Under the pieces are notes generated by a model that worked only from the letters and a program-made list of their open reading frames with translations, made no database searches and was not told where the DNA came from. 64,000 nucleotides of DNA from Leeuwenhoekiella sp. (GTDB lineage: Bacteria > Bacteroidota > Bacteroidia > Flavobacteriales > Flavobacteriaceae), in the NCBI GenBank assembly GCA_049671285.1, contig JBATUQ010000052.1:15774-79773 (forward strand), given 5' to 3'. Of this stretch, positions 21,205-55,720 are shown piece by piece. Numbering within the stretch: position 1 is the stretch's first letter; every line of letters starts with the position of its first letter. The position numbers and the translations under genes were made by a program.

Positions 21205-21268
21205 TTAATTTTACCGTGGTGGGCAAAAGTAAGTAAATCGCCCAAGTGTCAATAAAATTATACCATTT

Positions 21269-22018
21269 GTGATCAGATTTTTCATTTTTGTTAGTTTTCT
21301 AAGCTTGATTGCCTGCGGCGAAAACAAATCAGTCACCCAGAAAATCACAGCTTCCCAGACAACAGTTTCAGATTCCATCCCTGCTGATGCTGAGATTGAA
21401 GCGTTCATAGCTCCGTATAAAAACCGCATTGATCAGGAGATGGACAGCGTGCTGGCCTATGCTCCCGCGACCTATACTAAAAGCAACGGCGAGTACAATA
21501 CCGCCATTGGCAATATGATGGCCGATGCCGTGCTAGAACTTGCCGATACCATTTTTGCTGCCCGTACCGGGAAACACATTGATGCGGTCTTGCTGAACAG
21601 CGGTGGGATTCGCGCCCCAATCAATAAAGGAAACATTACCACCCGAAGCGCTTACCAGTTAATGCCTTTCGAAAACAGTTTGGTCGTCGTTGAACTAGAC
21701 GCCCAAATGATTCAAGCGATGTTTGAATACTTGAGCTGTGGAAAAGCGCATCCAATCTCAGGTATGGAAATCGAACTTGACGACAACGGAAAACTCGCCA
21801 ACAACACCATACACGGTGAACCGCTGGATGATTCCAAAACCTATTTCATAGCCACCAGTGATTATTTACAAAATGGCGGCGACGGTATGGAATTCTTAAC
21901 CGATCCCGTTTCAAAAACTGATCTGGACTATAAAATCAGGAATATCCTGATCGATTATTTCAGCAAATACGACACCATCGCCCCGGTTAGGGATAGTCGG
22001 TTTATAAAACGGGACTAG
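21269..22018 (+). CDS. 5'-nucleotidase C-terminal-domain lipoprotein
   Basis: Lipoprotein signal FLSLIACGENKS. The 5'-nucleotidase C-domain is recognisable from NTAIGNMMADAVLE...LLNSGGIRAPINKGNITTRSAYQLMPFENSLVVVELDAQMI. Confidence 0.75.
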   Translation: MIRFFIFVSFLSLIACGENKSVTQKITASQTTVSDSIPADAEIEAFIAPYKNRIDQEMDSVLAYAPATYTKSNGEYNTAIGNMMADAVLELADTIFAARTGKHIDAVLLNSGGIRAPINKGNITTRSAYQLMPFENSLVVVELDAQMIQAMFEYLSCGKAHPISGMEIELDDNGKLANNTIHGEPLDDSKTYFIATSDYLQNGGDGMEFLTDPVSKTDLDYKIRNILIDYFSKYDTIAPVRDSRFIKRD

Positions 22019-22083
22019 GGCGGTTCTCTTGGTACGCTTCCTCACCTTGTTCGGACGCTACTCGAGAACCTTATCAAAAGGAA

Positions 22084-22203
22084 AACAAAAGGTGTCCGAG
22101 TAGGGTTATTAAAGCAGAGCGAGACCACCCGTACCGAGGAAACCGGAACAAAAAAAGGTGTCCGAGTAGGGTGGTCAAAGCGGAGCGAGACTACCCGTAC
22201 CGA
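22084..22203. repeat. Two tandem ~62-bp direct repeats (~85% identical), intergenic
   Basis: AAAAGGTGTCCGAGTAGGGT(T/G)(A/G)T(T/C)AAAGC(A/G)GAGCGAGAC(C/T)ACCCGTACCGAGGA occurs twice in tandem. A GGTTCTC...GAGAACC inverted repeat (22023-22071) lies just upstream. They sit between the two 5'-nucleotidase-domain genes. Confidence 0.6.
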
Positions 22204-22228
22204 GGACCCGGGAACTAAAACTTACATT

Positions 22229-23137
22229 ATGCATCGCAGAACCTTCGTTAAAAATTCAGTGGCTGCATCCCTGCTAACGGGAATGACAACAAACAGCTAT
22301 GGCGCACTACTTCCCAAAGCAGATAAGCACATCACGATTTTACATACCAATGATGTGCATAGCCACATTGAGCCTTTTGGTCCCGATGAAGGCCGAAATG
22401 CCAACAAAGGTGGAGTTGCCCGCCGGTTGACGCTTATTCAAAAAGTACGTGCCGAAAATCCCAATACGCTCCTGCTCGATGCCGGGGATATTTTTCAGGG
22501 GACGCCCTATTTTAACTTCTATGGTGGCGAACTCGAATTTAAACTGATGTCCAAATTGGGTTATGACGCGGCGACCATTGGCAATCACGATTTTGATAAT
22601 GGCGTGGGCGGTCTTGCCGCTCAGATGCCGCACGCCGGGTTCAAAATGCTTTCGGCCAACTATGACTTTACAAATACCGCGATGGAAGGCCTGACCAAAC
22701 CGTATCAGGTTTTTGTAAAAGATGATGTGAAAATCGGTGTTTTCGGGATTGGGATCGCGCTCGACGGACTGGTCAACAAAACGCAATATCGGGAAACAAA
22801 ATATATGGATCCTATCGAGCGAACTCAAGATATGACCCGTATTTTACGCGAGGAAGAAAATTGCGATCTGGTCATCTGCCTTTCACATTTGGGTTATAAA
22901 TACGACAGTGATAAAATCTCTGATGTTGCCTTAGCGGCGAAAACAAGCGGGATTGACCTCATCATAGGCGGTCATACACATACTTTTTTGTCCCAACCCA
23001 CTGTCACCGATAATAAGCGGGGAAAAAAAGTCTTGATTAACCAAGTAGGCTGGGCCGGAATCAATCTGGGCCGGATTGATTTTTATTTGGATGCAAGCGG
23101 TAAAGTGAGTTCAGAAGAACTGATAATTGAGGTTTAG
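22229..23137 (+). CDS. Metallophosphoesterase (5'-nucleotidase N-terminal/calcineurin-like domain), Tat-like signal
   Basis: MHRRTFVKNSVAASLLTG is a twin-arginine-type signal. ILHTNDVHSHIEPFG, DAGDIFQGT and GNHDFD are the dimetal-phosphoesterase motifs. Confidence 0.8.
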   Translation: MHRRTFVKNSVAASLLTGMTTNSYGALLPKADKHITILHTNDVHSHIEPFGPDEGRNANKGGVARRLTLIQKVRAENPNTLLLDAGDIFQGTPYFNFYGGELEFKLMSKLGYDAATIGNHDFDNGVGGLAAQMPHAGFKMLSANYDFTNTAMEGLTKPYQVFVKDDVKIGVFGIGIALDGLVNKTQYRETKYMDPIERTQDMTRILREEENCDLVICLSHLGYKYDSDKISDVALAAKTSGIDLIIGGHTHTFLSQPTVTDNKRGKKVLINQVGWAGINLGRIDFYLDASGKVSSEELIIEV

Positions 23138-23634
23138 CTCTTCAATTTTTTTTGCCTCCAACCCAATCTTTTTTGAATGCTACTAGGTGAGTTGGTAATT
23201 CTTAATTACATTATTAAAATCTGCATCACCCTAGTATTTGCCTTACAACAAATACTGTAAAATTGACCCTACTTAAATTTCAATTTCCTGCTTTGTATTA
23301 TTTTCTTGGAACGACAATTATCGTAATAATAATGCTCATATAAAGGAATTACCCCAAAACTATTGCGCCCTTACATCGATTTCTATTCAATTTTCACCGA
23401 CTTTTACGCTATTAAACACTGTTATTACTTTGTATTTCGTCGTTATAATTTATCTTTTAATGTATCATTATTGAATTTAATTTTATAATTGTAGGTATTT
23501 ACTTAAAATATTATTTACTTTTACATTTAATACTGAGAATATATTATACAAAGTCAACCTTTTTAGCTCCGCTTGAAGGTGGTGATTGTATTTAACAGTA
23601 AAGTAGTTATGTGATTAATTTCAATATCAGACCT

Positions 23635-25647
23635 ATGAAAAATATATTATTCCTGACTCTTTGTCTATCCTTCTGCGTGATGCAAGCCCAGCTTTATGTG
23701 TCAGCAGATACAGAAATCTATATTTCTTCGGACGATAATCTGTACTCCAACGAAAATATTATCAATGAAGGAAAAATTCAATTAAACGATGCTTCCAGAC
23801 TTATTTTTGACGGAAATTTGACCAATAACAACCTGATCGCCTATACCAACGGAACCGACAAAGGTATACTCCAAATAGGATCTGGCGAGGTATCCAGTGT
23901 CAGTGCTCAAAATATAAAGTTCCACCCTACAGTCACGGAAGAGGCTCCGTTTATCATTCTAAATAAGAATTCTCAAGAGGCAAGCGTTACACGGGGTCAC
24001 TTGCGATTAACGGAACAATTAAAATCAATAAGTGGTACATTAAATGCCCAAAGTTCTATTAGCGAAACCGGAGAATCTTCGGGATTGACATTTGCCAGCC
24101 CCGATATCACCACCACGTCAATAGTTGAAGAATCTGATGGCGGAAATGTAGTTAATGTAATTGTAGAGCGTTTTATACCCAATTCCAGTAGGGCGTGGAG
24201 ATATCTTTCATCTCCAGTAAGTACCAACGAGTCCATCAAGGAAAACTTACAAGAAGGTGCCAACATCACTTCACCAGGCCAAGTAGCAAATCCATTTCCG
24301 GGGTATGGCACCCATATCACAGGGTCTAAAACGGGAACTCTTGGTTTTGATGCAACATTAACCGGCAACTCTTCCATGTACTTTTGGGATGGAGGCGCTC
24401 AACAATGGAACAGTACTCCCAATACAGATACCAGACAACTCGCGGCAGGAGAAGCCTACGCCATACTTGTGCGGGGTGGCCGGGAGCTTGATTTGACTGC
24501 TGGAAACGATCAATTGGGTTCATCTACCATTTTAAGAACTCTGGGAAATCTTCACATTGGTGCCTACAACACCCCCAATTTGGCACCCACGACAGGTGAT
24601 TTTTCCCTTGTAGGCAACCCGTATCAGGCACAGGTTGACCTGGAAGCATTACTTAATAGTGGCAATAACGGCGGAGTAAGTAACAATTTTGTCTATTATT
24701 ATGATCCCAATTTAGGAGTACAGGGCGCGTATGCCACTATGGATTTTGGCAATGGGATTACCCCAAGTGTGTCTGAAGCCAGCAAATACCTACAACCCAA
24801 CCAAGCCTTTGTTGTACAAACTACCACGTCCAATCCCACTTTACTTTTTGACGAGAATTTTAAAAGGCCAACTGATCAAACAAAGATCAACGGCGTTTTC
24901 AGTCCCGCTCAAAAAGGCAAATCGGACCTGGATAACGATAAGTTGGATACAGATTTTAAAATAGACGTAAATTTATTTGATACAGATGCCAACGTGACCA
25001 AGGATGGGGTCACGTTAAGATTTAATGCTGCTTATAACGACGAGATACTTCCAGAGGAAGACGCTCCAAAATTTTGGAATCGGGATGAATCGCTAGCTGT
25101 CCTCAACCAAGGTCAGTATTTATCCATTGATAAGCGCCATATCGTCAAGGAAATGGCGAATGCGCAATTGTATATTTCAAATTACAGGAATTCAAATTAT
25201 TCCCTGCAAATTTCCATAAAAAATGCTCCTGCCGGAAGTAAGGTCGTTCTGATCGATAATTACCTAAATACACAAACACTATTGGAAGAAAACGCCAATC
25301 GCCACGATTTTAGCATTGACAAAAATGTAGCTCAGTCCATTGATCAAAGTCGATTTAAATTGGGGCTTTATAGTAATTCGCTTAGTGTTCCATCCACTGC
25401 CGAGCTATCGTCTATAGGTTTCTATCCCAATCCCGCTGTTGATAAGCTGAATATCGATTTGAATACTACGGATGACGTTTTAAAGGAACTACAAATTTTT
25501 AGCTCAGACGGTAAATTGGTCAAACAAATTGCTGTTGATAACCTTACCGAAAAGCAGATAGAAGTAGGCGATTTACCACGCGGTATCTATCTTGTAGAAA
25601 TGCAAACGGTCAAAGGAAAGGCTGTAAAGAAATTAATTCTTCATTAA
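23635..25647 (+). CDS. Secreted surface protein with a T9SS (Por) C-terminal sorting domain; function unknown
   Basis: Signal peptide MKNILFLTLCLSFCVMQAQ. The C-terminal ~80 aa, IGFYPNPAVDKLNIDLNTTDDVLKELQIFSSDGKLVKQ...GIYLVEMQTVKGKAVKKLILH, is a type-A T9SS CTD. It is preceded by a 470-bp very AT-rich non-coding region. Confidence 0.75.
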   Translation: MKNILFLTLCLSFCVMQAQLYVSADTEIYISSDDNLYSNENIINEGKIQLNDASRLIFDGNLTNNNLIAYTNGTDKGILQIGSGEVSSVSAQNIKFHPTVTEEAPFIILNKNSQEASVTRGHLRLTEQLKSISGTLNAQSSISETGESSGLTFASPDITTTSIVEESDGGNVVNVIVERFIPNSSRAWRYLSSPVSTNESIKENLQEGANITSPGQVANPFPGYGTHITGSKTGTLGFDATLTGNSSMYFWDGGAQQWNSTPNTDTRQLAAGEAYAILVRGGRELDLTAGNDQLGSSTILRTLGNLHIGAYNTPNLAPTTGDFSLVGNPYQAQVDLEALLNSGNNGGVSNNFVYYYDPNLGVQGAYATMDFGNGITPSVSEASKYLQPNQAFVVQTTTSNPTLLFDENFKRPTDQTKINGVFSPAQKGKSDLDNDKLDTDFKIDVNLFDTDANVTKDGVTLRFNAAYNDEILPEEDAPKFWNRDESLAVLNQGQYLSIDKRHIVKEMANAQLYISNYRNSNYSLQISIKNAPAGSKVVLIDNYLNTQTLLEENANRHDFSIDKNVAQSIDQSRFKLGLYSNSLSVPSTAELSSIGFYPNPAVDKLNIDLNTTDDVLKELQIFSSDGKLVKQIAVDNLTEKQIEVGDLPRGIYLVEMQTVKGKAVKKLILH

Positions 25648-25734
25648 TTTACTTGTTGTTTTTTAAATGAAACGGGCAGTATTTGATCTATATATAAACA
25701 CATCCTGCTCGATCAGTGAGAATATCTCAAATGT

Positions 25735-25938
25735 TGCCTAGCGGCGAAAACAAAGGCAATTTTCCTCATCACTGTTGGTCATAGAAAACCTTACCATTAC
25801 GACGCTAAGCGATAATCAGGACGAAATAAAGCCCCAATTAACCAAGTAGGCTGAGCCGGAATTAATCTGGGCAGTATTGATTATTATCTGGATGCAGGCG
25901 GAGTAGTAAGTTCGGAAGAACTCATAATTGAGGTGTAA
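25735..25938 (+). pseudogene. Decayed duplicate of the last ~210 bp of the metallophosphoesterase gene (22928-23137)
   Basis: About 80-85% nt identity to 22928-23137, including ...ACCAAGTAGGCTG(A/G)GCCGGAAT(T/C)AATCTGGGC...GAAGAACT(C/G)ATAATTGAGGT. The reading frame is broken by stops and indels. Confidence 0.6.
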
Positions 25939-25980
25939 GATTTCTTGTGGAATATGAATTGATCATGCCATCACCAAAAG

Positions 25981-26361
25981 TCAAAATGGATTTAAAAGCT
26001 GTAAATCCGTAATACTTTGGAAATCCTTAATGTTTCGAGTCATCAAAGGAATGTCAAAACTCAATGCAGTAGCAGCAATAATCGCGTCAGGCAGTTTGGT
26101 TGAATATAATTTACGAATGTCTGCAGTTTGCAATTTAATTGCTTTGTTGAATTCAATTACTTCACATTTTTCAAGAAATTCGTTCAGCATTCTGATATCC
26201 TCTTCTTCATCAGATTTCCAAGAAAGAAGCTCTATTTCTGAAATTACAGAGATGCAGGGCTGCCACTTGTCGTCGGTTAAAGTTAACTTGGGAATGTCAT
26301 TGAGGATAATATTCCTTGAAGGAAGTAAATGACAATATTTGTGTCCCAAAGATACTTCACT
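25981..26361 (-). pseudogene. vapC: PIN-domain (VapC-like) toxin gene disrupted by a single-base frameshift
   Basis: The canonical PIN N-terminus VKYLWDTNIVIYFLQG starts at a GTG overlapping the antitoxin stop (GTGA). It runs only 25 codons before a stop. The rest of the PIN domain (NIILNDIPKLT...WQPCISVISEIELL...LPDAIIAATALSFDIPLMTRNIKDF) continues in another frame. The join implies one missing A in GGAAATATT, now GGAATATT, at about 26310-26316. The listed ORF 25981-26394 has an artificial N-terminal extension. Confidence 0.65.
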
Positions 26362-26563
26362 CCCAACCCGCTCGAAGTTCATCCAATTGCGCATCTACTT
26401 GATCCATAGATTGTTTCTTCATAGAACCGGCGTAATCTTGCCAATTGCTCTTTTGATTTTGGCTTTCTGTGGTTCTTTTCAGACGGATCAAGTTTAATGA
26501 TTCCAAATTCTCTAGAATTTTCAGAACTCCGTTATTCAGTATTTCTATCGTAATGCTGTTCAT
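26357..26563 (-). CDS. Putative type II antitoxin partner of the PIN toxin
   Basis: 68-aa ORF (MNSITIEILNNGVLKILENLESLNL...) immediately upstream of the PIN toxin, with a 4-bp stop/start overlap. Probable start at the internal ATG. Family not recognisable. Confidence 0.45.
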   Translation of the reverse strand: MNSITIEILNNGVLKILENLESLNLIRLKRTTESQNQKSNWQDYAGSMKKQSMDQVDAQLDELRAGWE

Positions 26564-26646
26564 TATGAAAGCTTTAAGATTACATTCAAAAATAGACACA
26601 TTTCAGTTGAATCTAAAATTTAACAAAATATGCTCCTATAATTAAA

Positions 26647-28650
<2,004 letters not shown>

Positions 28651-28943
28651 TTATTTGTTATTCTTTCAGTGTTCTATATTATTAATTCACTATGCTTGCT
28701 GTGGTTAACTCATTAGTGCAACTGTCCTTTTTATTGTGGTCTTAACTGAGTTGTTAATAATGAACGGTCTTACAGGTCTGTAATTTATTAATCTTTCCCC
28801 TTCTTTAATGCGTTTGTGCGGTACTTTTCTAAGTTCCGTTTTCTTTGTGTAGAATTTCCTCATCACCCCAATCCTAAACTTCACTTTACCCTTGTCCCGA
28901 GAGGTGTAGGGTCTTGTGAAATAGGTTTTTATCTTGAGGTAAA

Positions 28944-29147
28944 TTACTGGTTTGTGATACCGGGCCAACTCCCTTCCGTTGTTGGAATTATTGGTCTTAA
29001 TTTAAAAGCGATTAAAAGAAGCGTGGTGGCCGTGTCATATAGAAATAAGTTCCCCGCGGAAATCACACCAACCAGATAGTTCCCAAAGACATACATCCAG
29101 AATCTGGGTCTGGACAAATAGAAAACTTCTTTAAACGTCAGCTTCAT
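28944..29147 (-). pseudogene. Possible N-terminal fragment of a UbiA-family prenyltransferase
   Basis: 67 codons, MKLTFKEVFYLSRPRFWMYVFGNYLVGVISAG..., resemble the first TM segment of UbiA-type prenyltransferases, then stop. No downstream continuation in any frame. Confidence 0.3.
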
Positions 29148-29377
29148 ATTGTCCCAAAAATACCATGATAAAACTTGAAATCATCGTGTTTACGGAATCT
29201 TTGTTCAATTTTTTCAGGAAAAGTGTAAACGGAAAGTTGTAGCCCTGAAACTTGAACTTGTAGCTTTAAAATTTTGAGCAAGAGAGTCCTCGACCATGCT
29301 CAGACTGCTCTTATAAATTGAACAAAGCTTGAGAAGGCAGAATCGAAAACTGTAAGTGTAATCAGTCACGTAGATAT

Positions 29378-29885
29378 CTAATAAAAAAGCAAACCCCAAC
29401 CCCAATAATTACTGTGGAATTGCGAGGGCTCTAACAATTTGGTTGAGTCACCGTTATGGTTCAAAAATTCCTGCTCTGAAAGTTGGCTGTGAAGATCGCC
29501 TGATTTTAAATTGAGGATAGCAAAGCCGTTAGTCGTCTTCGTGTACAGAATATCACGCTCTTCGTAAAGTGTCTCAATCAAACTCGTCAACCCAAAGCCG
29601 TCATCGTTTTCGTTTCTTTTTTCAACATTTGCATAGTGAAAATCAATCATAGTAATATAGTACTGCGAGTTCAATGGCACCCTGCCATAATCCCCCAATC
29701 CGTTATTTCCAGTACGAAAAGCGCCAAATGAACAATGCCACAAACAACACAGGAAAAAGGATTCTTTTCTTTACCGAAGTACCTCTCCTAGCTTTAGCTA
29801 TTAAAAACCTGAGCAGAAAACCGTAAACAATGGCTAAAATTGAAATACGGATGATTTCAAAGATGAGATGTAATAAAACAAACAT
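29378..29885 (-). other. Two overlapping minus-strand ORFs (60 aa membrane-like + 121 aa) that could be one frameshifted gene; unknown function
   Basis: ORFs 29703-29885 and 29378-29743 overlap by 41 nt in different frames. The first is a hydrophobic helix. No recognisable motifs. Lies in a gene-poor, decayed region. Confidence 0.2.
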
Positions 29886-30781
29886 TATGGCTCTAATTTA
29901 AAGTTTACGGTATCTGTCTATTCTTTGCCATAGGTACACACGGGCTAAAAATCAAATTTATTTAATCAATCTCAACGGGAATAGGTCCTCCTAGCGATAC
30001 AAAACCACCACCAATTTCTTCTATATTCACATCCAATTCATCACTGGTTTTAACGCCAACAATATTGACATCGATCTCATCAGAACCATTTAGTTTAACG
30101 CTGATGGTTCCATCTTCGTTTATAGGTATTAAACCATAGTTTACATCGGAGGCTAACTTGGGATAATATCAAAATTTTTAATCGTTGAGAAAGTTAGGTT
30201 AACCGCTATTACGGTCAATATAATTTTCGTGAATTTATCTGTTTTCATTTTCGCTTTTTTTAGTGATATTATTGAACTCCAATTTCTATACCCTTTTGAT
30301 ATCTGCTCGGGCAATTCTCTATTGAGCTTTTTAGCTCATAATATTTACACGGCATCCTCAAAATGGTTAAGTACATTGGTTCTCGAGACCAACAAATATG
30401 GTTGGCTCCAACTAATATAACCAGCAACAACTATTCTTTTTACTAGTCTGTATTTGTCTGTTTCGTCTTTATTCCTTTTTCGGTTGTACTTATTTAAAAA
30501 ACTTCGTTTAATTGATTACAAAGAGCCTAGCAGTAGGTATTATGATTACCTCTTTGCTGACGATTTCTAATCATATTAGTTGATTCTAACTATATGGAAT
30601 TGAGCTTTGTTTTTTTTGAACTTTTGGCATAAATTTAATGATACGAGAATTGATTAAAAGAAAATTTCTATTCAATTGGACTGTATTACAATAGTTTATA
30701 CTCAATCAGAGTAATCTACAATTTATTACTTCGAATTAGTCAGTATAATTAATTTACTCGCTTATTAAGGTGTGAAATTCC

Positions 30782-31105
30782 TTACTTAATTTCAGATGAT
30801 CTTATTGCTGTTCCAGATGCCACAATGAAAAGCATAGATTTTCCTCCACCAGAAAATTCACTATAATCTAAATCTACTCCGATAACTGCATTGGCTCCTA
30901 CTAAAAATGCCTCTTTACGCAATTCGTTAAGGACTGTTTCCTTTGACTCGCGAAGAGTATTTTGTAAAGTTTCACTCCGACCTCCAATCACATCACGAAC
31001 TCCTGCAAATAAATCCTTAAAAACATTCATTCCAAAAGCACATTCTGCTGTTAATATATCTATTCGTTGATCAATTTTAAAGTCAACGTGACTTTCTGTG
31101 GTCAA
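30782..31105 (-). CDS. YbjQ/UPF0145 (DUF74) domain protein
   Basis: [35 protein letters not shown]...[34 protein letters not shown] aligns along its length with E. coli YbjQ. The TTG start is listed, but the frame stays open upstream to 31270 (see the zinc-ribbon finding). Confidence 0.7.
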
Positions 31106-31202
31106 AGTGATTTTCTTAATTTCTTCTAAGGTTAGGTTTTTTACTTCGTCCAGCTTTTTTTCTTTGTTTAAATATGCCGCCTCTGCCTGCTTTCGATTTT
31201 GC

Positions 31203-31370
31203 TCATTTATATAACAAGTCTGGCAAAATCCATCGTTTAATAGATTTTTTATTGAAATTTGTACCGCAACCTAAACATTTTGGACTTTCCTTATCTATGC
31301 AACTTTTACATATTCCATTTTTAAGTTCGAAAATCCCGAAACCTTTTTCACATTTTTTACATTTTGCCAT
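31203..31370 (-). CDS. Small zinc-ribbon ORF (55 aa, three CxxC pairs), possibly the N-terminal part of a frameshifted zinc-ribbon-YbjQ fusion gene
   Basis: ATG...[55 protein letters not shown]. It is not in the ORF track (<60 aa). A shift of one base in the A6 run (plus-strand T6 at 31245-31250) continues into ...[13 protein letters not shown]... and on into the YbjQ ORF. Confidence 0.4.
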
Positions 31371-31515
31371 CTTTCTGAATTTTGCTAAACAAAGTTTCCT
31401 ATTGTCTTATAAGTTATTTTTTATGTGCTCAATAACAAACATTTTAATCAATTACTAATCTCACAAGTTCAGACAAGCTCTAATTAAATTTTCTCAATAT
31501 TTTTGCCACATCATA

Positions 31516-34500
31516 TTAAGAGCCCTTCCCCAACCCCAACTTCAATACCTCCTTAATCCCTTCCAGATTCTCCGAAAATTGCATCATCTGGCTAAGCATT
31601 TGGGCCATTTCATTTTTGTCGCCAAAGCCTTTCAACTTGTTGTTTTTTACAAAAGTTTCCTTGATGGTATTCCAGCGCTGGGTTTCTTCGGGGTTGAGCG
31701 TGCCGGTGAGTTCCTTGTATTTTAAAATGTTGGCTTCCGCAGAGGCGGTCAGGGTTTGTGACTCGCTTTCGTAATGCGAAAGCAACAGCGTATCGAGTTC
31801 GCGGTCGTTCATGATCGGGACGACCTTGGCGACCAGTTTGTTCATATCGCGGTAGGAGCCCTGCAGTTTAAACGACGGTTCGGTGCGGTATTCGTCCTCC
31901 ATCGCCGCACTTTTGATGTAGGCGGCATTCACCTTCAGCACCGTATTCCTGATCTTGACCACCTTTTGCAGCACCGCAACATATTCCGCAATCTCCTGAT
32001 TGCTGTGGTTGCCGCTCAGTTGGGCTTCCTGATTGTTGTTTTCCACCCGGTCCAGCAGCGTATACACATCGTCAAAATGGCTGCTGCTCAATTGCTGCAG
32101 GATTGGGTTTGCGGTCAGCGAGTTTTCGATCAGGCTCAGGTTAAACAGATGCGCGGTATCGCCTATGATGTCTCCCAGGTTGTAAATATCTGCCCGGTTC
32201 GCCAACATATCTGGGATGCGGAACTTCTCCCCGCTCTCTGTATATGGGTTCCCGGCCATTATCACGCAGAATTTCTTACTGCGCAGGTCATAGGTTTTGG
32301 GTTTGCCGTTATACACGCCTTCTATTTTTCGGGTTCCGTCAGAAAGTGAAATAAATTTCTGCAAAAACTCCGGGTTGCAATGCTGAATGTCATCCAGATA
32401 AAGCATCACGTTGTTGCCCATCTCAAAAGCAAGGTTCAATTTCTTGAGTTCTTCCCGCGCGGCAGAATTGGTCGCACTCGCAGGATCTACTGAAGTTACC
32501 TCGTGTCCTATCGCCGGGCCATTGATCTTCATAAAAATTAGGCCAAGCCGATTCGCGATATATTCCATCAAGGTAGTTTTCCCGTAGCCTGGCGGCGAAA
32601 TCAACAACAGCAAACCCATTCGGTCGGTGCGTTTGTTGTCGCCCACGGTGCCCAACTGTTTCGCCAGATTGTCACCAAAAAGCGGAAAATATACCTGATC
32701 GATCAGTTTATTCCTAACGAAAGAAGTCAGCACCCGCGGCTTGAATTCTTCCAGTTTGAGTTGTTCTTTTAAATCTTCGGTTACCTGATGTTTGGCCTCG
32801 CGAAAAGCTTGAAAAGCGGGTACATCTTCGGCTACAAAAGCAGACAAGGTCGCCGTAAAATCGTGATAATTGAATTCGAAATTTCCTTCTGTGATTGTCG
32901 AATGGCTTCCGCTCAAACCACTTATAGTGGCACTTGGCGAAGTCGCTTCTACCTTAGAAACCGACGCATCCGAAAATAGCAACGCACAGACCACCTCATC
33001 GATATATCGTGATTTCTGCGCTGTCGAAAGTTGAGTTCCATTCTGGTAAACCGTATTGACGAAGGCAGAAACCCACTGCCGCGTCAACTTTATCATTTCC
33101 GAGAAGTCGGGAATCTTCTCAATACTTTTACGAAATTTTAAATCTGCTTGTTGCTCCTTCAGGTGTTTCTCAAAAGCTTCTTTGATGGATATCGCCAAAT
33201 GACTTTGCGCAAATTGATCGTCGTTTTGCAATTCCTCAAAAAGATAGTCAGCGATATTTTCGCCTAGAGCGGAATCAAAAAGTGTGGTCGCTTTAGAAAA
33301 ATTTTCGATCTGTCGGGTTAATTCCTTGATTAAAAAATCATATTCCCGCGTCTGCGGAAAATACTGCAACACCTCCCCGGAAGCTTTAATGCTCTGATCG
33401 AGTTGTGCTTGTTTCGCGGCTTCGAGACTGTTCCAAAAATACTGCGCAAACGCCCTGATCTCCGGCCGAAACCGCAACAGTCCCAACGAATGGTGCTTGT
33501 TGACCAACGTCGCCAAGATTTCTGCGGCATCGCGATCGTGCACGCCTTTTACATACCCTTCGGCATAATCGCTACTGCTTTCTTGCTGCACGATTTTAAG
33601 CAGTTCTTCTCCCGTTTTATCATACAGCTTTTCGGTACCAATCTTTTGAAATAATTTATACGCTAAATAGGCCGACCTATACACCTGATCGTTTTCAGAA
33701 ACCAGTTCCTGATCCCAGAGGTTTCGCGAGTTAAGCAAAATGGGATTGTCCAGTTTTTGGTAGAAATCCGTTCCGGTAAGGTGGTAATTAAGTTCGCCGT
33801 TTTTTAAAACGATCGTGAGATCGAGTTGCTGTTTATTGACCCCAAATTTGTGCTTGCCGAGTTTGATGACATTTTCGCCATCTTCATACAGATCCTGTTT
33901 GTCCTTGAGTTTGCGCAGCGCATCTTCGCGGGCGGTTTTGAGTCCGGTTTCAATTTCTTCGGCTTTACCGCTATCATCGAGATCTTTCAGCTGCTGCACG
34001 ATGTCGCGCACCTTGTTGATCATCAGGTCTGCGGCAAAATATCCGTTAATTTCTGTGGCAGTCTTAAAACTTTCGACCTTCTTCCGCACGCCTTTTAAAA
34101 TACGTTCGGAAGCATTTTGCAAAGCCATTGCACGCTTGTTGCGCTTTTCGACCAAGGAGTTTTTCCGGGCATCAAAGGCATTGTACACCTCTTCCCGCTT
34201 GTCGATAATCTCCGAAATGAATTCTTCGAAATCAGCAAATTTCCCTTCCAACTCTTCCAGCTGAATGGTGATTTTATTCTGAAACTCGTCGCATTTTTCG
34301 GGTGTATCTGCGATGTCCAGATAGTTGATGATGCTCTGATCGATCAACTTTAACTGCGCGGCAAAATCAGCTTGGGCTTCGGCGCTTCCCAAGGATTTCC
34401 GCTTATTGCGCAAAGCGGCTTTTAGCTGGTTTAGCGTGGCAAAAATCAGGGAAATATTATCGATGATTTTGGTTGAATGCGCCGTATCCTCAATCTCTAA

Positions 34501-36417
34501 GTTGGAAACGATATCGATCAACAATTCGAGGTCTGCCGCGATCTGATTGACTTCTTCTTCCAGTTTTTTGGCCTCGATTACTTTTTCTATTCCATCCAAA
34601 GCCTTTTGCTTTTCAGCGACTTTAGCGTGGTACGGTTGCAACGCTTTTTCGTCCAATAAAAACTGAACACAACGCTTGGAGATTTTCTGGGATTGTTCTG
34701 CAATATCGCTTTCAAGTTCCTCAGTGAATTTTAGATCGACATAACGGATTTCGCGTAAGCTGATCACCTCGCCACGCAAACTGCGCAACTGAGTCAACAC
34801 CGCAACAAACTCATCAATACTTCGGAAAGAGGTGCTTTTGATTTTACTAAAAAGTGCTTCCGCTTTTTTCCGGATTTCATCCGTTTGCTTTTTGGCATTT
34901 CGGCGCAGCTGCACCACTTTTTGGAATTCATCAATCGCAGCATTTGCAGCCTTATTGATTTCACCAAGCGGCTCGTTTAACTGTTGCGTTTCCGCCTCTG
35001 GCAACCAATAATAAGCGTCGAGAATATCCTTGGACGATTTGGCAATGTCGCTGTAAAGTCCGTCGTAACTGTCCTTTTTATTGAGCAAGGTAACCAGGGC
35101 ATTGACCTCTGCCATCGCCTTGACAATATCCTTGTTTCCTATTTTATAAAGCAGGGTGTCCTCGTGCTGCGACGGCATAAAATCCCCCTTGATAAAAGGC
35201 GTCTGCCAGATCTGAACGGTGTGGTGCTTGGTCTGCTCCTCTTCGGTGCGGAAATAACAAAGTTCACCATTCTGTAGCACTGTAAAACCGTTACAGATGA
35301 TGGGTGTTTTAATTTCCTGCGAAATCACATTGTAGGACATCAAATTGTACAGGCCTTCTTTGGAAGAATAAAAAATGTACAAAAAATCCTCACCGTTAGG
35401 AGAAGCAATGCGCCCCTGAAACTTTACGTCTGGAATCGAATTATCAAATACATTGTACTCGCCCGTTTGCAAATAATAACCCGTCGGAAAAATAATCCCC
35501 TGATCCTCGGGAAGCAAAACGCAGGCATCTTTTATACTCGCGATTTTCTGAACTTCCTTGAGTTTGTGGTTGTAAACAAAATAGCGGGACGGCTCCTGAA
35601 AAGGCTTGATTTCTAAAGCGATCAGATTGCCAAGATCGGCAAAACGGTACTGCCCGTCATCGAGCGTCTGGTCGTAGTGTTCCACCGTCTCTGAGAAAAT
35701 TCCTTTACCATCATCGGTGTTGTCCTCGATTTTAATGGTGAGGTCACCGCCTACCGCTTCCACAAAAACCTTGTCTGCAATCGATACGTGCGGATGTGCT
35801 CCATAACGCTGGTTATCGCGACCCGCTTCCAACCACTTAAACTCATGCTGCGCCGGAAACCGGAACTCGTGATCGCTTCGGTTGTCCACATAATCCAAGC
35901 GGTTTTCCTTGATCAGCCATTTAAAGGTTTTGATGTCGGTGACGCTTTCGCTCAGCTGAAAAATCATATGCAGATAGTTGCCAATGACGGCGAACTTTGC
36001 AAAAATGGTGTTCCGGTAGTATTTGTAAAGGTTGGTAAAATCGGTTTTAAAGGTGTCGTCATTTAGCAACCCAAGATCAAGCGGTTCGAATCGATTGTCT
36101 TTAAATTCATAAACGCTAAAAACATCGGAAAGTGTGATTTCCGTACGCAGTCCAAAATGCACATTGTACCCGAACAGGCAAGTATCTCCCAGCGACACAA
36201 TATCGCGGGCGATGCAATTGTTTTCGGTGTTGATTCGGTCATTGGCGATCAGTTTCGTTTCCAGCGACCCAAAGACTTCCTGGCGGTCAATATTCAACTG
36301 CTGTAGCCGTTCCTGAAGATCGACCTTCTGTTTCTGCAGCCGGTTTTGAATGATCTCGTAGGTGCCGGAGTCCAGTGTATTGTTATTACTATTTTTATTG
36401 GTATTGTTTTCTGACAT
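31516..36417 (-). CDS. Giant (1633 aa) protein with a C-terminal MoxR/AAA_5-like AAA+ ATPase domain and a ~1250-aa uncharacterised N-terminal region (beta-rich segment then long helical/coiled-coil region)
   Basis: The only P-loop is LLLLISPPGYGKTTLMEY near residue 1290. Walker B region VMLYLDDIQHCNPEFLQKFISL has D-D rather than D-E. Sensor/Arg region KKFCVIMAGNPYTESGEKFRIPDMLANRADIYNL matches the MoxR/AAA_5 pattern (xATxNPxExxGxxxLPxAxLDRF). Residues ~450-1150 are Lys/Glu/Leu-rich helical. It is the last gene of the pspA-flotillin operon. Confidence 0.85.
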   Translation of the reverse strand: MSENNTNKNSNNNTLDSGTYEIIQNRLQKQKVDLQERLQQLNIDRQEVFGSLETKLIANDRINTENNCIARDIVSLGDTCLFGYNVHFGLRTEITLSDVFSVYEFKDNRFEPLDLGLLNDDTFKTDFTNLYKYYRNTIFAKFAVIGNYLHMIFQLSESVTDIKTFKWLIKENRLDYVDNRSDHEFRFPAQHEFKWLEAGRDNQRYGAHPHVSIADKVFVEAVGGDLTIKIEDNTDDGKGIFSETVEHYDQTLDDGQYRFADLGNLIALEIKPFQEPSRYFVYNHKLKEVQKIASIKDACVLLPEDQGIIFPTGYYLQTGEYNVFDNSIPDVKFQGRIASPNGEDFLYIFYSSKEGLYNLMSYNVISQEIKTPIICNGFTVLQNGELCYFRTEEEQTKHHTVQIWQTPFIKGDFMPSQHEDTLLYKIGNKDIVKAMAEVNALVTLLNKKDSYDGLYSDIAKSSKDILDAYYWLPEAETQQLNEPLGEINKAANAAIDEFQKVVQLRRNAKKQTDEIRKKAEALFSKIKSTSFRSIDEFVAVLTQLRSLRGEVISLREIRYVDLKFTEELESDIAEQSQKISKRCVQFLLDEKALQPYHAKVAEKQKALDGIEKVIEAKKLEEEVNQIAADLELLIDIVSNLEIEDTAHSTKIIDNISLIFATLNQLKAALRNKRKSLGSAEAQADFAAQLKLIDQSIINYLDIADTPEKCDEFQNKITIQLEELEGKFADFEEFISEIIDKREEVYNAFDARKNSLVEKRNKRAMALQNASERILKGVRKKVESFKTATEINGYFAADLMINKVRDIVQQLKDLDDSGKAEEIETGLKTAREDALRKLKDKQDLYEDGENVIKLGKHKFGVNKQQLDLTIVLKNGELNYHLTGTDFYQKLDNPILLNSRNLWDQELVSENDQVYRSAYLAYKLFQKIGTEKLYDKTGEELLKIVQQESSSDYAEGYVKGVHDRDAAEILATLVNKHHSLGLLRFRPEIRAFAQYFWNSLEAAKQAQLDQSIKASGEVLQYFPQTREYDFLIKELTRQIENFSKATTLFDSALGENIADYLFEELQNDDQFAQSHLAISIKEAFEKHLKEQQADLKFRKSIEKIPDFSEMIKLTRQWVSAFVNTVYQNGTQLSTAQKSRYIDEVVCALLFSDASVSKVEATSPSATISGLSGSHSTITEGNFEFNYHDFTATLSAFVAEDVPAFQAFREAKHQVTEDLKEQLKLEEFKPRVLTSFVRNKLIDQVYFPLFGDNLAKQLGTVGDNKRTDRMGLLLLISPPGYGKTTLMEYIANRLGLIFMKINGPAIGHEVTSVDPASATNSAAREELKKLNLAFEMGNNVMLYLDDIQHCNPEFLQKFISLSDGTRKIEGVYNGKPKTYDLRSKKFCVIMAGNPYTESGEKFRIPDMLANRADIYNLGDIIGDTAHLFNLSLIENSLTANPILQQLSSSHFDDVYTLLDRVENNNQEAQLSGNHSNQEIAEYVAVLQKVVKIRNTVLKVNAAYIKSAAMEDEYRTEPSFKLQGSYRDMNKLVAKVVPIMNDRELDTLLLSHYESESQTLTASAEANILKYKELTGTLNPEETQRWNTIKETFVKNNKLKGFGDKNEMAQMLSQMMQFSENLEGIKEVLKLGLGKGS

Positions 36418-36756
36418 GCTTGGGCTTTGTTAAAGACCTGCAAGGTTTTGCCAACCTTGTAGGTCTGTCTTACCTGATTGAGCAAGGGAGACCTACAAGG
36501 ATCGCTCGTTCCTCGCTCATACCTTGCAGGTCGGGGCAACCACCCCGGTTTTCAGCTGCGCTGAAAAATTCCCCTCCTTAATTAAGGAGGGGAGCCTTTA
36601 GCATTTTCATAAATGAAAATGTGTTGAAGTCAATTTATATTACAATGCAATTAATTGCATTGGCGTGCAAAAGCTCCCCTCCTTTTCCCTTCGACTAAGC
36701 TCAGGACAAGCAAGGAGGGGACCGTTAAATCAAAGATTTAACAGGGGTGGTTTTGC
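36418..36756 (-). promoter_or_regulatory. Highly structured 339-bp intergenic region (nested inverted repeats, twin GC-rich hairpins, terminator-like element) between the flotillin gene and the giant ATPase gene
   Basis: Four 11-12-mers in alternating orientation: GACCTGCAAGG (36435), CCTTGTAGGTCT (36455), AGACCTACAAGG (36489) and CCTTGCAGGTC (36512). They allow either 1:2+3:4 or 1:4+2:3 pairing. CCCCTCCTT-AATT-AAGGAGGGG (36572-36593) is followed on the transcribed strand by AATTTTT. A second CCCCTCCTT...AAGGAGGGG copy (36676-36720) has a 29-nt loop. Further palindromes: CATTTTCAT-AA-ATGAAAATG, CAATGCAATTAATTGCATTG, GTTAAATC-AAA-GATTTAAC. Confidence 0.6.
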
Positions 36757-38823
36757 CTACTTCATCTTCACCCCGTCAATCCCAAGACCTTTGGCCAAGT
36801 TTACTAGGTTACTGAACATGGTCTTTTCTCCAGGGTCTCCAGAACGATCTCTTAGTTGCAGAAGCACATTGGCGATGGTCAGGTTCTTGATATCTTCGGA
36901 GGAAACTCCGTATTTATCTGCGAACTCTTTGACTTTGGCCAATAAATTACCCTTTACATCATCGCTGCCCAAAATGGCGTCTTTGACCTCCTGAATGTTA
37001 CTGCTGTTCTGAACTAAACGGTCGAAGCCTTTACCTTTTGTGATCTGGCCTATGATCTGATCAAAGAACATCGTCTCACCACCTACGATGTCGATTTTAG
37101 CTGCTTTCAATGCATCACCAATCACCTGAGCCTGTGCATCAGCAATGGCTTTCTGGATGTTGATGTGTGCCAGATCCACCTGAAGTTCCTTATCCAAACG
37201 CAATTTGAATTCTTCGTGCTCTTTACCAACACCATCCAATTTCTTCATCGCGTTGGCTTTTTCTTCGATACCGGCGGCATCGGCAATGGCCTTCTCCCGG
37301 ATTACGTCTGCTTCAGCAAGGCCGTCTTTACGCTTGGCGTCAGCCTTTGCGTGAATTCCGGCGGCTTCCGCCAATGCCATTTTCTCAATGATGGAAGCTT
37401 CCACGATTCCCTGACGTTCGTTGGCATCTGCTTTGGCGTGCATTACCTGAGCTTCAGACATACCAACGGTTGCTTCTTCCTTGGCTTGTGCTTCGGCCAG
37501 AATCTTACGGGCTTCTGCCTGTTTCTGGCTGGCTTCTTTGTGAGCTAAGGCTTCAATGTTTATCTCTTCTGCTTTTTGCTTGGCTGCTTCTTTTTGGGCT
37601 TCCGCTGCTTTGGTGGTTTTGATTAAGTCTTCTTGAGCATTCGCTTCGGCAACGGTAATTTTCACCTGCTTGTCCCGGTCGGCAGTTTTAAAGGCCTGAA
37701 TGTCCTTCATATTCTCTTGTTCTTCGACCACTCCTTTTTCGAGCATCACCCGGTCGCGAATCACATCCTGAATGTTTTTCTTTTCGACCTCAACCACCTT
37801 CTCTTTTTCGATCTGCGCCAAAGTGACGACGCGTTCCCTTTCGGTAGCTTCCAAGAGACGGTCTTTTTCAACACGCTCGGTTTCTACGGCATCTGTTCGT
37901 TCCTTGTTTTTAGATGCAACAATGATCTGACGCTGCATGTTTTCTTCGGCTACTTTTACTTTTTCCTCGGTGGCCAGTCTTGCAGTTTCCGATTTTAGAC
38001 GCTCCTCTTCACGGACCTTTAAAGTCTCTGCTTCTTCACGGGATTTAATGTTGGCAATCTCACGCTTCTGCTGCTCTTCTTTTTCAGCCAATTGTTTGTC
38101 GAGTTCGAGAATGGCTTCCCGCGCTTCCACATCTTGTTTACGGATGGTTTTTTCCTCGTCGCGCTTGATCAGGTTGGCCTTTACGTTTTGGGCTGCGGTG
38201 AGTTCGGTGATTTTCTTGATACCTTCCGCGTCCAAAATATTGTCCGGTTTTAAAACCGAAACTGAAGTCTGCTCCAAAAAGTCGATAGCACAATCTTCAA
38301 GCGTATAACCATTAAGATCGGTGCCGATGATATCTACAATTTCGTCACGAAATTCCCGACGCGCTTCATACAGCTCAATAAATTGAAATTTCTTTCCAAC
38401 AGTCTTTAAGGCTTCGGAAAATTTAGCTTCAAATAGATCCTCTAAGGTTTCGATTCTTGATGCGCGTGCCACACCAATGGTCTGCGCCACTTTCTTAATA
38501 AAGGAAACATCGTTGTTTACCCGAACAAAAAATGCCACTTTGATATCGGCCCGCATATTGTCCTTACAGATCAATCCTTCCACACCCAGACGTTCTATCT
38601 GGATTTTCTTGACCGAAATGTCCATGGTTTCCACCCGGTGAAAAACCGGAACGACATACAGACCTTTATCTGTCGCGACTTTGGTGCCGCCAAAACCGGT
38701 CCTGACTAAAGCTTGACCTTGATGCACTTTTTTGTAAAACATCGCGATGATCGCGAAGTAGACGATGACTAGAAAAAGGAGTCCGCCCAAAGCCAAGCCT
38801 ACAATTTGTAAAATACTTTCCAT
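36757..38823 (-). CDS. Flotillin-like SPFH/band-7 protein (YqiK/FloT type) with long EA-rich coiled coil
   Basis: N-terminal TM helix, SPFH domain (residues ~30-250), then ~350 aa of Glu/Ala/Lys-rich heptads (EAQKEAAKQKAEEINIEALAHKEASQKQAEARKILAEAQAKEE...) typical of flotillins. 688 aa. Confidence 0.85.
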   Translation of the reverse strand: MESILQIVGLALGGLLFLVIVYFAIIAMFYKKVHQGQALVRTGFGGTKVATDKGLYVVPVFHRVETMDISVKKIQIERLGVEGLICKDNMRADIKVAFFVRVNNDVSFIKKVAQTIGVARASRIETLEDLFEAKFSEALKTVGKKFQFIELYEARREFRDEIVDIIGTDLNGYTLEDCAIDFLEQTSVSVLKPDNILDAEGIKKITELTAAQNVKANLIKRDEEKTIRKQDVEAREAILELDKQLAEKEEQQKREIANIKSREEAETLKVREEERLKSETARLATEEKVKVAEENMQRQIIVASKNKERTDAVETERVEKDRLLEATERERVVTLAQIEKEKVVEVEKKNIQDVIRDRVMLEKGVVEEQENMKDIQAFKTADRDKQVKITVAEANAQEDLIKTTKAAEAQKEAAKQKAEEINIEALAHKEASQKQAEARKILAEAQAKEEATVGMSEAQVMHAKADANERQGIVEASIIEKMALAEAAGIHAKADAKRKDGLAEADVIREKAIADAAGIEEKANAMKKLDGVGKEHEEFKLRLDKELQVDLAHINIQKAIADAQAQVIGDALKAAKIDIVGGETMFFDQIIGQITKGKGFDRLVQNSSNIQEVKDAILGSDDVKGNLLAKVKEFADKYGVSSEDIKNLTIANVLLQLRDRSGDPGEKTMFSNLVNLAKGLGIDGVKMK

Positions 38824-38835
38824 TAAATTGATTGA

Positions 38836-39561
38836 TTAATTAGTTTCGTTATATAGTTGAACCAGATATGAGTGCTTATCTGAAGAACGTTTAATGATCA
38901 AAATTTCACTTCCATATGTAATTGGCGTACCATCTAGTGATTTGACGTAGATCGCCATAGGGTTGCCGTCTGCTAGAATTTCTGCGTTACCCATCTTATC
39001 TTCTGAAATCGTGGATAGCAAAACTCCCTTTCGGCCCAAATAATCCACAGGCGCATCCCCATCCTTATTCAGGTTTTTAAAGAAGCTCTTAAAAGGAGAT
39101 GTAAACAGCTTATTGAGGATCAATGCTGGAAAAAATCCAGCAATCATGATCACAAACCCCAAATAGTTGTCATAGGTAAAGGTTAATGCGGTCGTCAACG
39201 TGGTAATCGTCCACCAAATGAAAATCCAGCAAGTGAAGGTGAACATAAACGGCAGTCCGACAAAGTTGAAATAAATCAAAAATACCTGCCACCACTTTAA
39301 TTTGCGCTGCCTTTTGCCGATGACGTGATCTTTGTCAACTTCCACATTGGATACGTCCTGAAAGTCCATATTACCTCCTTCCAAACCGGTATCGATGTCA
39401 ACATCAGCGTCGATATCAACATCGACCTCGACATCAAAATCGAGATCAAAATCGATACCGCCTATCATCGTGATCAACCAGTAGATGATCAACAAAGAGA
39501 GCAATAACGTCAATATAATGTTGACCTCAGAAAATAATATGTTCCATAAATTTGTATCCAA
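38836..39561 (-). CDS. NfeD/YqiJ-like (DUF1449-type) inner-membrane protein with a C-terminal OB-fold, partner of flotillin
   Basis: Multiple TM helices. The C-terminus YLGRKGVLLSTISEDKMGNAEILADGNPMAIYVKSLDGTPITYGSEILIIKRSSDKHSYLV looks like the NfeD short-form beta-barrel. It sits immediately upstream of flotillin, as in yqiJ-yqiK and nfeD-floT operons. It also contains an alternating hydrophobic-Asp stretch IDFDLDFDVEVDVDIDADVDID. Confidence 0.6.
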   Translation of the reverse strand: MDTNLWNILFSEVNIILTLLLSLLIIYWLITMIGGIDFDLDFDVEVDVDIDADVDIDTGLEGGNMDFQDVSNVEVDKDHVIGKRQRKLKWWQVFLIYFNFVGLPFMFTFTCWIFIWWTITTLTTALTFTYDNYLGFVIMIAGFFPALILNKLFTSPFKSFFKNLNKDGDAPVDYLGRKGVLLSTISEDKMGNAEILADGNPMAIYVKSLDGTPITYGSEILIIKRSSDKHSYLVQLYNETN

Positions 39562-39563
39562 GG

Positions 39564-40280
39564 CTATCCCTCTTTTGTATTGTTAAGGCCCAGTTGGGCT
39601 TTTAGTCTTTCCAAATCGTCGTCGGCTTTGGCAACCGTGGTATCGGCGGCCTTGTCAAGTTCGTCATCAATGCTTTTTGAGGCATTGGCGATATCGCCGT
39701 AAGCCTCCGCAAGAGCTTCTTCCTGAGCGACCTTTTCCTTCATACGCTCCAGCATTGAAACCGTACCGCTGCTGTCAATTTCAGACATCTGCTTGTTCAG
39801 GTTTTTAGTTGCCGTGCTTACTTTTACGCGTGCTTTGAGCGTTTTAAGTTCGTTTTCCCAGTTGCTGATATTCGACTTTATGGTTTGAATATTCTTCTGT
39901 AGTTGAGCGACATTAGTATCAAACTTATCAGATTCCTTTTTTGCACGGTCCACGTGCTGCTGGGCTTCTTCTTTTTTGGTCAAAGCCTCTTTCGCCAAAC
40001 GATCAGCTTCGGCAGCATCCATCTCTTTGCTGTGCGCTTTTTTGAGGATGATGATGGCCTTGCTCTGGTAGTCTTCGGCTTTGTTTAAGTATTCGTCCTG
40101 GTCGTTCTTCGCACGAATTGCCAAGGCTTTGACCTGCGCGAGTGCTTCCAGGCTTTTCTCGAGATCCGCTTTCATATCGCGAATGCCCTGCTCGGTCATC
40201 TTGATGGGATCTTCCATATTGTCAATGGCCGAATTGGCTTCGGCCTCGCCTATCCTAAATAATCTTTTAAAAATGTTCAT
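39564..40280 (-). CDS. pspA: PspA/IM30/Vipp1-family protein (bacterial ESCRT-III superfamily)
   Basis: MNIFKRLFRIGEAEANSAIDNMEDPIKMTEQGIRDMKADLEKSLEALAQVKA follows the PspA consensus (M-IF-R...EDPEKML-Q-IRDM). 238 aa, all-helical, heptad-rich. Confidence 0.85.
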   Translation of the reverse strand: MNIFKRLFRIGEAEANSAIDNMEDPIKMTEQGIRDMKADLEKSLEALAQVKALAIRAKNDQDEYLNKAEDYQSKAIIILKKAHSKEMDAAEADRLAKEALTKKEEAQQHVDRAKKESDKFDTNVAQLQKNIQTIKSNISNWENELKTLKARVKVSTATKNLNKQMSEIDSSGTVSMLERMKEKVAQEEALAEAYGDIANASKSIDDELDKAADTTVAKADDDLERLKAQLGLNNTKEG

Positions 40281-40287
40281 GGTTCTT

Positions 40288-40325
40288 ATTATTACTATTG
40301 TTATTGTTATTGCTATTGCTATTCT
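40288..40325 (-). repeat. (TATTGY)6 on plus strand = (RCAATA)n in pspA sense, ending 8 nt before the pspA start codon
   Basis: TATTACTATTGTTATTGTTATTGCTATTGCTATTC. In the pspA-sense RNA it reads as ARN triplets (AAU AGC AAU AAC ...). Confidence 0.7.
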
Positions 40326-40399
40326 TTACTTGAGTAGGTTTAGAAGGAGTTTTTTGATTCTAGTCTCATATCTCATGTCTAAATTCTAATATCACATTT

Positions 40400-40795
40400 T
40401 CAATATTTACTGAACTCAATAATTTTGTCTGAATATTCACTCATTAATAGGCTTAGCGAATTCAGGCTGCCTTCGAGTTCGTTGAGATCCAGGTTTTCCA
40501 GCTGAAGCGTGTCCCGAAAAATTACCTTCTCGCCAGATTCATCAAGGACGAAAGCGCCGTGAATGATGTCCCTGTTTTTCTGAAGCAGGCTTTTGAAGAT
40601 TTTTTCGTTCTGGTTTCTAATTTTAAAAATGAACTGCTCCATAATCAGAATGGGTTCTGAAACGCCAAGGATCAAATTGTGAATACCAAAATTTTCCTTC
40701 TGAACGACTAGTATTCCGTCTTCCCGGTTTTCCTTGGTAATGTTGAAATTCAGTTCCAGCAGAAATTCTTTGGTGATGTTGAAATGATTTTTCAT
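40400..40795 (-). CDS. Small cytoplasmic protein, possibly YbjN-domain (T3SS-chaperone-like) family; first gene of the pspA operon
   Basis: 131 aa, mixed alpha/beta composition. Its size and its position directly upstream of pspA fit YbjN-like proteins. No diagnostic motif, so the family is a guess. Confidence 0.35.
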   Translation of the reverse strand: MKNHFNITKEFLLELNFNITKENREDGILVVQKENFGIHNLILGVSEPILIMEQFIFKIRNQNEKIFKSLLQKNRDIIHGAFVLDESGEKVIFRDTLQLENLDLNELEGSLNSLSLLMSEYSDKIIEFSKY

Positions 40796-55646: not shown

Positions 55647-55720
55647 GGCGAGGTAGCTCAGCTGGTTAGAGCGTCGGATTCATAACCCGGAGGTCGGGGG
55701 ATCGTGCCCCCCTCTCGCTA
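55647..55720 (+). tRNA. tRNA with CAT anticodon (Met / fMet / Ile2-lysidine class)
   Basis: GGCGAGG-TA-GCTC-AGCTGGTTA-GAGC-G-TCGGA-TTCATAA-CCCGG-AGGTC-GGGGG-ATCGTGC-CCCCC-TCTCGCT-A. Canonical D-arm. The 7-nt anticodon loop has T33 and CAT at 34-36. The T-loop has swapped A54/T58. The acceptor has two G-U pairs. CCA is not encoded. Confidence 0.75.

Follow-up and report, generated by a model that had tools for sequence, protein, structure and literature searches.

Two small open reading frames (ORFs) lie one after the other on the minus strand of the window, which is the whole 64-kb stretch of DNA analyzed here, from a MAG of Leeuwenhoekiella sp. The upstream ORF (31370..31203) runs from an ATG at 31370 to a TGA at 31205-31203, encodes 55 aa with three CxxC pairs (C4xxC7, C21xxC24, and C32xxC35), and is the 5' fragment of a disrupted gene. 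The first two pairs make up zinc ribbon 1, and the third is only the first knuckle of ribbon 2. Residues 1 to 41 align with intact orthologues, and the tail consists of 14 out-of-frame residues followed by the TGA stop. The downstream ORF (31105..30782, minus strand) runs from a TTG at 31105 to a stop at 30782 and encodes 107 aa comprising the YbjQ (UPF0145) domain alone. In the NCBI record (P0034, source MAG), this ORF is a CDS named "YbjQ family protein [Leeuwenhoekiella sp.]." The distance from the TGA to the TTG is 97 nt, or 100 nt with the stop codon counted.

The frame of the YbjQ ORF is left open by the shift for 163 codons (31270..30782, minus strand), and these encode ribbon 2's second knuckle, CQTC, followed by a helical linker and then the YbjQ domain. 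A +1 insertion most likely took place in the A6 run within AATAAAAAATCT (plus-strand T6 at 31245-31250); when one A was deleted from this run, both ORFs were joined as one 195-aa protein. The frame changes inside the second zinc ribbon, after knuckle 3 and before knuckle 4; with its two knuckles parted by the break, ribbon 2 is retained by neither fragment. A preliminary description of this DNA had reported both ORFs, the A6/T6 run, the 100-nt spacing, and the upstream extension of the YbjQ frame to 31270 with its fourth CxxC pair, and each of these was confirmed in the sequence; the fused length of ~170 aa that it had proposed is corrected here to 195 aa.

Next, the repaired protein was compared with known families. 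Pfam YbjQ_1 (PF01906) matched residues 87 to 190 over profile positions 2 to 102 of 103, with a score of 87.4 bits against a cut-off of 23. NCBIfam YbjQ-type models also matched, but at levels below their equivalog cut-offs, and the solved YbjQ structures 1Y2I, 2GTC, and 1VR4 were homologous over residues 90 to 191 (E values of 1.6e-20 to 2.3e-19). A search of the repaired 195-aa sequence against 5.8 billion proteins yielded 857 relatives, the best ~40 of which are single ORFs of 182 to 206 aa (most of 190 to 206 aa) with query coverage of 97 to 100%. The best orthologue (P0001) is itself 195 aa long and is 72% identical over 100% of the query (E value of 3.3e-88). RefSeq orthologues annotated as "YbjQ family protein" were found in Polaribacter sp. 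WD7 (206 aa) and Agaribacterium sp. ZY112 (194 aa). The preliminary description had proposed a BLASTP-type comparison as the way to find intact fusions in relatives, and this comparison did return collinear, full-length, single-ORF orthologues.

The alignment with these orthologues is collinear straight through the frame change. Judged from the aligned sequences, this continuation of homology from one frame into the other is not a chance occurrence. Cysteine is found at all eight ribbon positions in 43 of 58 full-length homologues, the others having one ribbon only, and ribbon 2 is an internal repeat of ribbon 1 with identical CxxC-x13-CxxC spacing. At the DNA level, the closest orthologue, L064, reads GCT AAA AAC AAT TTA AAA AAT GGA TTT TGT, opposite which the window reads AAT AAA AAA TCT ATT AAA CGA TGG ATT TTG C, with one base extra. 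In the alignment, L064 has just one gap, of 1 nt, which falls a few bases beyond the A6 run. The A6 tract is not conserved: L064 has AAAAAC at this position, and Polaribacter has AAA CCA GGC CAA, with no run. The fusion subfamily is characterized by a single uninterrupted ORF for ~190 to 206 aa, which the window copy lacks; a +1 change divides it into ORFs of 55 aa and 107 aa, and it is thus a disrupted copy and not an intact member of the subfamily. The proposal that a 1-nt frameshift at the A6 run broke up a zinc-ribbon-YbjQ fusion is therefore fully supported, since intact fusions occur in many bacteria and the orthologue DNA is one base shorter.

To examine the architecture of the repaired protein, an AlphaFold2 monomer model was generated (mean pLDDT of 83.7). 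The predicted fold consists of two small ribbons, a long helix (residues 50 to 77), and the YbjQ alpha/beta domain, the last modeled as beta-alpha-alpha-beta-beta with high pLDDT except in one loop. In 10-residue blocks, the mean pLDDT was 92 to 94 over residues 31 to 60, which span the junction. Scans for promoters and terminators around the zinc-ribbon-YbjQ gene gave background levels only, and a search for TAnnTTTG around the gene found no sites. PADLOC returned no defense-system matches for the repaired protein, two neighbors, and the AAA protein. Among the papers searched, none pairs YbjQ with a zinc ribbon and none mentions DUF3686.

The two genes that follow the split gene are also broken. 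The first, at 30248..29962 (minus strand), changes frame at 30167-30151 and encodes a small protein (MKTDKF...) that is hydrophobic in an N-terminal segment. When repaired, its product aligned with proteins of ~106 aa at 100% coverage, with identities reaching 70%. These proteins form an uncharacterized family that is widespread in Bacteroidota, one UniRef member of which is named "Secreted protein." The window copy has ~11 fewer linker residues than its close homologues, in addition to being out of frame, and linker length varies among distant homologues. The lesion is either a ~34-nt deletion or a 1-nt deletion. A 467-nt spacer at 30315-30781 has a GC content of 29.6% and contains no convincing ORF.

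A second disrupted gene (29885..29378, minus strand) comprises a 60-aa ORF (29885..29703) and a 121-aa ORF (29743..29378) in different frames. Homologues of the 121-aa ORF are mostly 160 to 170 aa long, with ~60 extra N-terminal residues that the window encodes in the 60-aa ORF, and the fused product aligned over its full length with homologues across the conserved motif WRFSYW(R/K)NNGLGD. The junction, TGGAAATAACGG at 29711-29700, lies at an A3 run within this motif, and the lesion there is most simply a 2-nt loss. Proteins of this family have a hydrophobic N-terminal region and belong to no Pfam family. Pfam identified no families in the neighboring fragments, and their identities were taken from homologue searches and tblastn; on the one homologue contig examined, the two downstream disrupted genes were not seen as a pair.

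Three consecutive genes thus carry three different frame-disrupting lesions within ~1.5 kb. Farther along the minus strand lies an N-terminal stub of a UbiA-type prenyltransferase (29147..28944), which is 67 aa long, compared with ~292 aa for the intact enzyme, and matches NCBIfam NF009516 over profile positions 20 to 47 of 292 (E value of 3e-6). It is accompanied by the C-terminal remnant of an IS30-family transposase (29001..28705, minus strand), recognized by tblastn against plasmids (E value of 1e-8) with 41% identity to annotated IS30 transposases. The stub runs into the remnant (28705-29147), and the site, immediately upstream of ligA, looks like the scar of a deletion and an IS element. 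Also next to ligA, a PIN-domain protein (137 aa) follows an overlapping small ORF (25981-26599, minus strand); the two are probably a toxin-antitoxin pair.

The intactness of genes elsewhere in the window was judged by ORF tiling together with Pfam scans of about ten genes in the 26- to 43-kb region; a brute-force scan for pairs of ORFs in shifted frames was too noisy, being dominated by normal operon overlaps, and tiling was used instead. Long ORFs tile the whole window except for the segment from 28.64 to 31.4 kb; outside this segment, the DNA is ~91% coding, with short gaps. The only Rfam match at the gathering threshold in the window is a single tRNA gene (55647-55720, plus strand).

Upstream of the zinc-ribbon-YbjQ gene, on the same strand, is an operon (31516-40795, minus strand) encoding a CesT/YbjN-like protein, PspA, an unknown 241-aa protein, a band-7/flotillin protein (688 aa), and an ATPase with DUF3686, DUF7902, and AAA domains (1,633 aa), with a divergent HTH gene beside it (41056-41817, plus strand). 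An operon class of PspA, CesT, band-7, and AAA+ genes that matches this operon has been described (PMC11237479). The AAA protein (P0213) is, like the 107-aa ORF, an NCBI entry from a 79,773-bp MAG contig of Leeuwenhoekiella sp.; its database label, "DNA repair ATPase," is unsupported by the membrane-stress context. Between the flotillin gene and the AAA gene lies a gap of 339 nt (36418-36756) that contains no ORF of at least 80 aa; relatives have a variable small gene at this position, GIY-YIG in Leeuwenhoekiella sp. W20 and SieB-like in Dokdonia.

Leeuwenhoekiella sp. W20 and Dokdonia sp. R86516 have the operon in conserved form, but the gene that follows their ATPase differs, being GyrI-like in the former and an unrelated small ORF in the latter. 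When seven neighboring genes of the window, including those for the five operon proteins, were compared by tblastn with 62 zinc-ribbon-YbjQ loci, no matches were found within 6 kb. We had considered the zinc-ribbon-YbjQ gene as the last gene of the operon, and this assignment was ruled out by the 62-locus comparison and by the different downstream genes in W20 and Dokdonia. The absence of the operon genes at the orthologue loci and the variable gene after the ATPase indicate instead that the zinc-ribbon-YbjQ gene is accessory, probably a horizontally acquired insertion at a variable junction. Its base composition also differs from that of its surroundings. GC content is 33.6% and GC3 is 19 to 21%, compared with a GC3 of 49 to 55% for the flanking AAA, flotillin, and ligA genes; the closest orthologues sit on contigs of 28 to 29% GC.

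These results suggested a working explanation, to which we assign a probability of roughly 75%, in which a real +1 A frameshift has occurred in a horizontally acquired accessory gene inside a decaying block. The ancestral gene would have encoded a single 195-aa protein of cytoplasmic type, in which two tandem CxxC-x13-CxxC ribbons are joined by a helical linker to a C-terminal YbjQ/UPF0145 domain. It was probably gained horizontally from a low-GC donor and would have landed at the variable junction just downstream of the PspA/flotillin/AAA operon. An extra A would then have turned an A5 run into A6 and shifted the frame, so that translation from the ATG would stop after 55 residues, with ribbon 2 halved. 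We infer that the organism itself carries the mutation and that its copy of the gene is nonfunctional. Three frame-disrupted accessory genes, a truncated prenyltransferase gene, and an IS30 remnant together point to a block that is being lost under relaxed selection, and since the frameshift is the only lesion of the zinc-ribbon-YbjQ gene, the lesion would be recent. The single lesion and the still-open linker frame also fit a sequencing error or a functional split. Among the interpretations offered in the preliminary description, that of a pseudogene is favored, since two adjacent genes are frame disrupted and a truncated gene and an IS remnant adjoin.

The same description had raised a sequencing or consensus error, by which the gene would be intact in the organism, with A5, and assembly would have added the sixth A as an artifact. 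The lesion does lie in a homopolymer, the classic site of indel errors; it is the sole defect of a gene whose halves are otherwise well conserved; and the source is a MAG. However, the Logan assembly of SRR28062985, made by a different pipeline, encodes the same 107-aa protein on a 28.9-kb contig that is 100% identical to the window over positions 20782-34368 (13,587 bp), including the A6 run and all three lesions. Two assembly pipelines thus give the same sequence, possibly from the same reads. Runs of A or T are also common in the window (162 of at least 6 nt, or about one per 400 bp, and 465 of at least 5 nt), yet long intact ORFs cover the remainder of the window. The AAA gene next door, 4.9 kb in length, is intact despite 33 A/T runs of at least 5 nt, and ligA and the flotillin gene are intact as well. 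Moreover, the neighboring lesions (the 2-nt loss at an A3 run and the linker that is ~11 residues shorter) are not slips in long homopolymers, and we roughly estimate a P value of ~0.002 for such close spacing of three lesions if they were placed uniformly in 64 kb. The clustering of the lesions, the two that lie outside long homopolymers, and the identical second assembly favor real mutations, short of proof, and we consider an error unlikely. The nearest AAA-ATPase orthologue in the databases searched is 77 to 78% identical, with no closer genome, and no intact ancestral allele was seen among those databases.

Somewhat less probable than an error is a functional gene fission, in which the mutation is real and YbjQ is made from the TTG at 31105 as a stand-alone 107-aa protein of the kind known from E. 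coli and Bacillus, perhaps with the 55-aa peptide as a separate product. The TTG ORF corresponds almost exactly to the Pfam domain, solved stand-alone YbjQ proteins are 103 to 133 aa long, the sequence upstream of the TTG is A-rich, and NCBI annotates the ORF as a CDS. On the other hand, the YbjQ frame has no ATG or GTG start, and the internal TTG, the only candidate, is simply the codon for the conserved Leu in the I-x-L-T-T-E motif of the intact proteins. The TTG is also too far from the upstream stop for coupling, the same split was found in no orthologue of the search set, ribbon 2 is destroyed in both products, and the neighboring genes are decaying as well. There is a slender chance that the locus is alive in some form, whether by low-level +1 slippage of the ribosome or RNA polymerase at the A6 run, which would give some full-length protein, or by expression of YbjQ alone from the TTG. 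If the latter is true, the TTG-expressed YbjQ would represent an ongoing gene fission in which a sensor-like zinc-ribbon module is being parted from its YbjQ effector.

Slipped-strand phase variation, also put forward in the preliminary description, would switch the full-length protein on and off by reversible changes in the length of the A tract, and a single slip in the homopolymer that holds the frameshift would indeed make the gene whole again. At 6 nt, the tract falls short of the 7-nt minimum applied to poly-A/T tracts associated with phase variation in a genome-wide survey of frame transitions (PMC3711429), and runs as long as this one are common in the window. The tract is not retained in L064 or Polaribacter, and the protein, which is of cytoplasmic type, has no signal peptide or surface features. 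A single allele was present in the two assemblies, and a pattern scan of JGI metagenomes for 4 to 8 bases at the tract gave no hits. We found no support for this reading and regard it as highly improbable.

The last alternative is programmed recoding, in which +1 ribosomal frameshifting or transcriptional slippage at AAA-AAA-U would give the full-length protein. Both routes are conceivable on A6, where tRNA-Lys could re-pair in the +1 frame, and RNA polymerase can slip on A runs. Such recoding is barely credible here, since recoding sites are conserved among orthologues, yet all of the at least 40 full-length orthologues found are single frame; the fold of 111 nt spanning the site shows no significant RNA structure (z = -1.2); the neighbors need other shifts (a 1-nt skip or 2-nt loss in one and a 1-nt or ~34-nt loss in the other), so that no single decoding rule rescues the block; and A6 is well under the runs of 9 A or 9 T used in a search for functional slippage (PMC1088944).

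With a real frameshift in a decaying block as the preferred reading, the MAG's 107-aa "YbjQ family protein" is better annotated as the 3' portion of a frameshifted pseudogene; the correction extends to the two downstream genes, for three genes in total, with the block at 28.6 to 31.4 kb noted as decaying. The locus also serves as a worked example in which neighboring genes, composition, and a second assembly help to distinguish a homopolymer frameshift in a MAG from a sequencing error.

How does the locus compare with known systems? The C-terminal 107 aa encoded by the window match the whole YbjQ/UPF0145 domain (PF01906; 1Y2I, 2GTC, and 1VR4), whereas the solved and E. coli YbjQ proteins lack the two N-terminal zinc ribbons and the ~35-residue helical linker of the repaired protein. 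The solved proteins have five chains per PDB entry, while the repaired protein was modeled as a monomer. The description of the YbjQ family as "putative heavy-metal-binding" is a database label only. The RefSeq zinc-ribbon-YbjQ fusions have the same architecture and are collinear with the repaired protein at 58 to 72% identity over the full length, sharing the four CxxC pairs and the LTTE...GGRS motifs; they differ in being uninterrupted ORFs, the window copy having one extra A, and share no gene neighborhood with the window. The architecture of two zinc ribbons, a helix, and YbjQ is widespread, uncharacterized, and already in reference databases, and nothing at the locus is new in kind. Homopolymer contingency loci, which include poly-G/C tracts in type III methyltransferase genes (PMC3711429), resemble the locus in having a frameshift within a mononucleotide run, but the window tract is too short, is not conserved, and has no length variants seen, and the protein is neither a surface nor a restriction-modification protein. 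From ordinary frameshift pseudogenes in variable or IS-scarred regions (PMC3711429), the window gene shows no substantive difference: like them, it carries an unconserved single indel at a short homopolymer and lies beside disrupted genes and an IS remnant.
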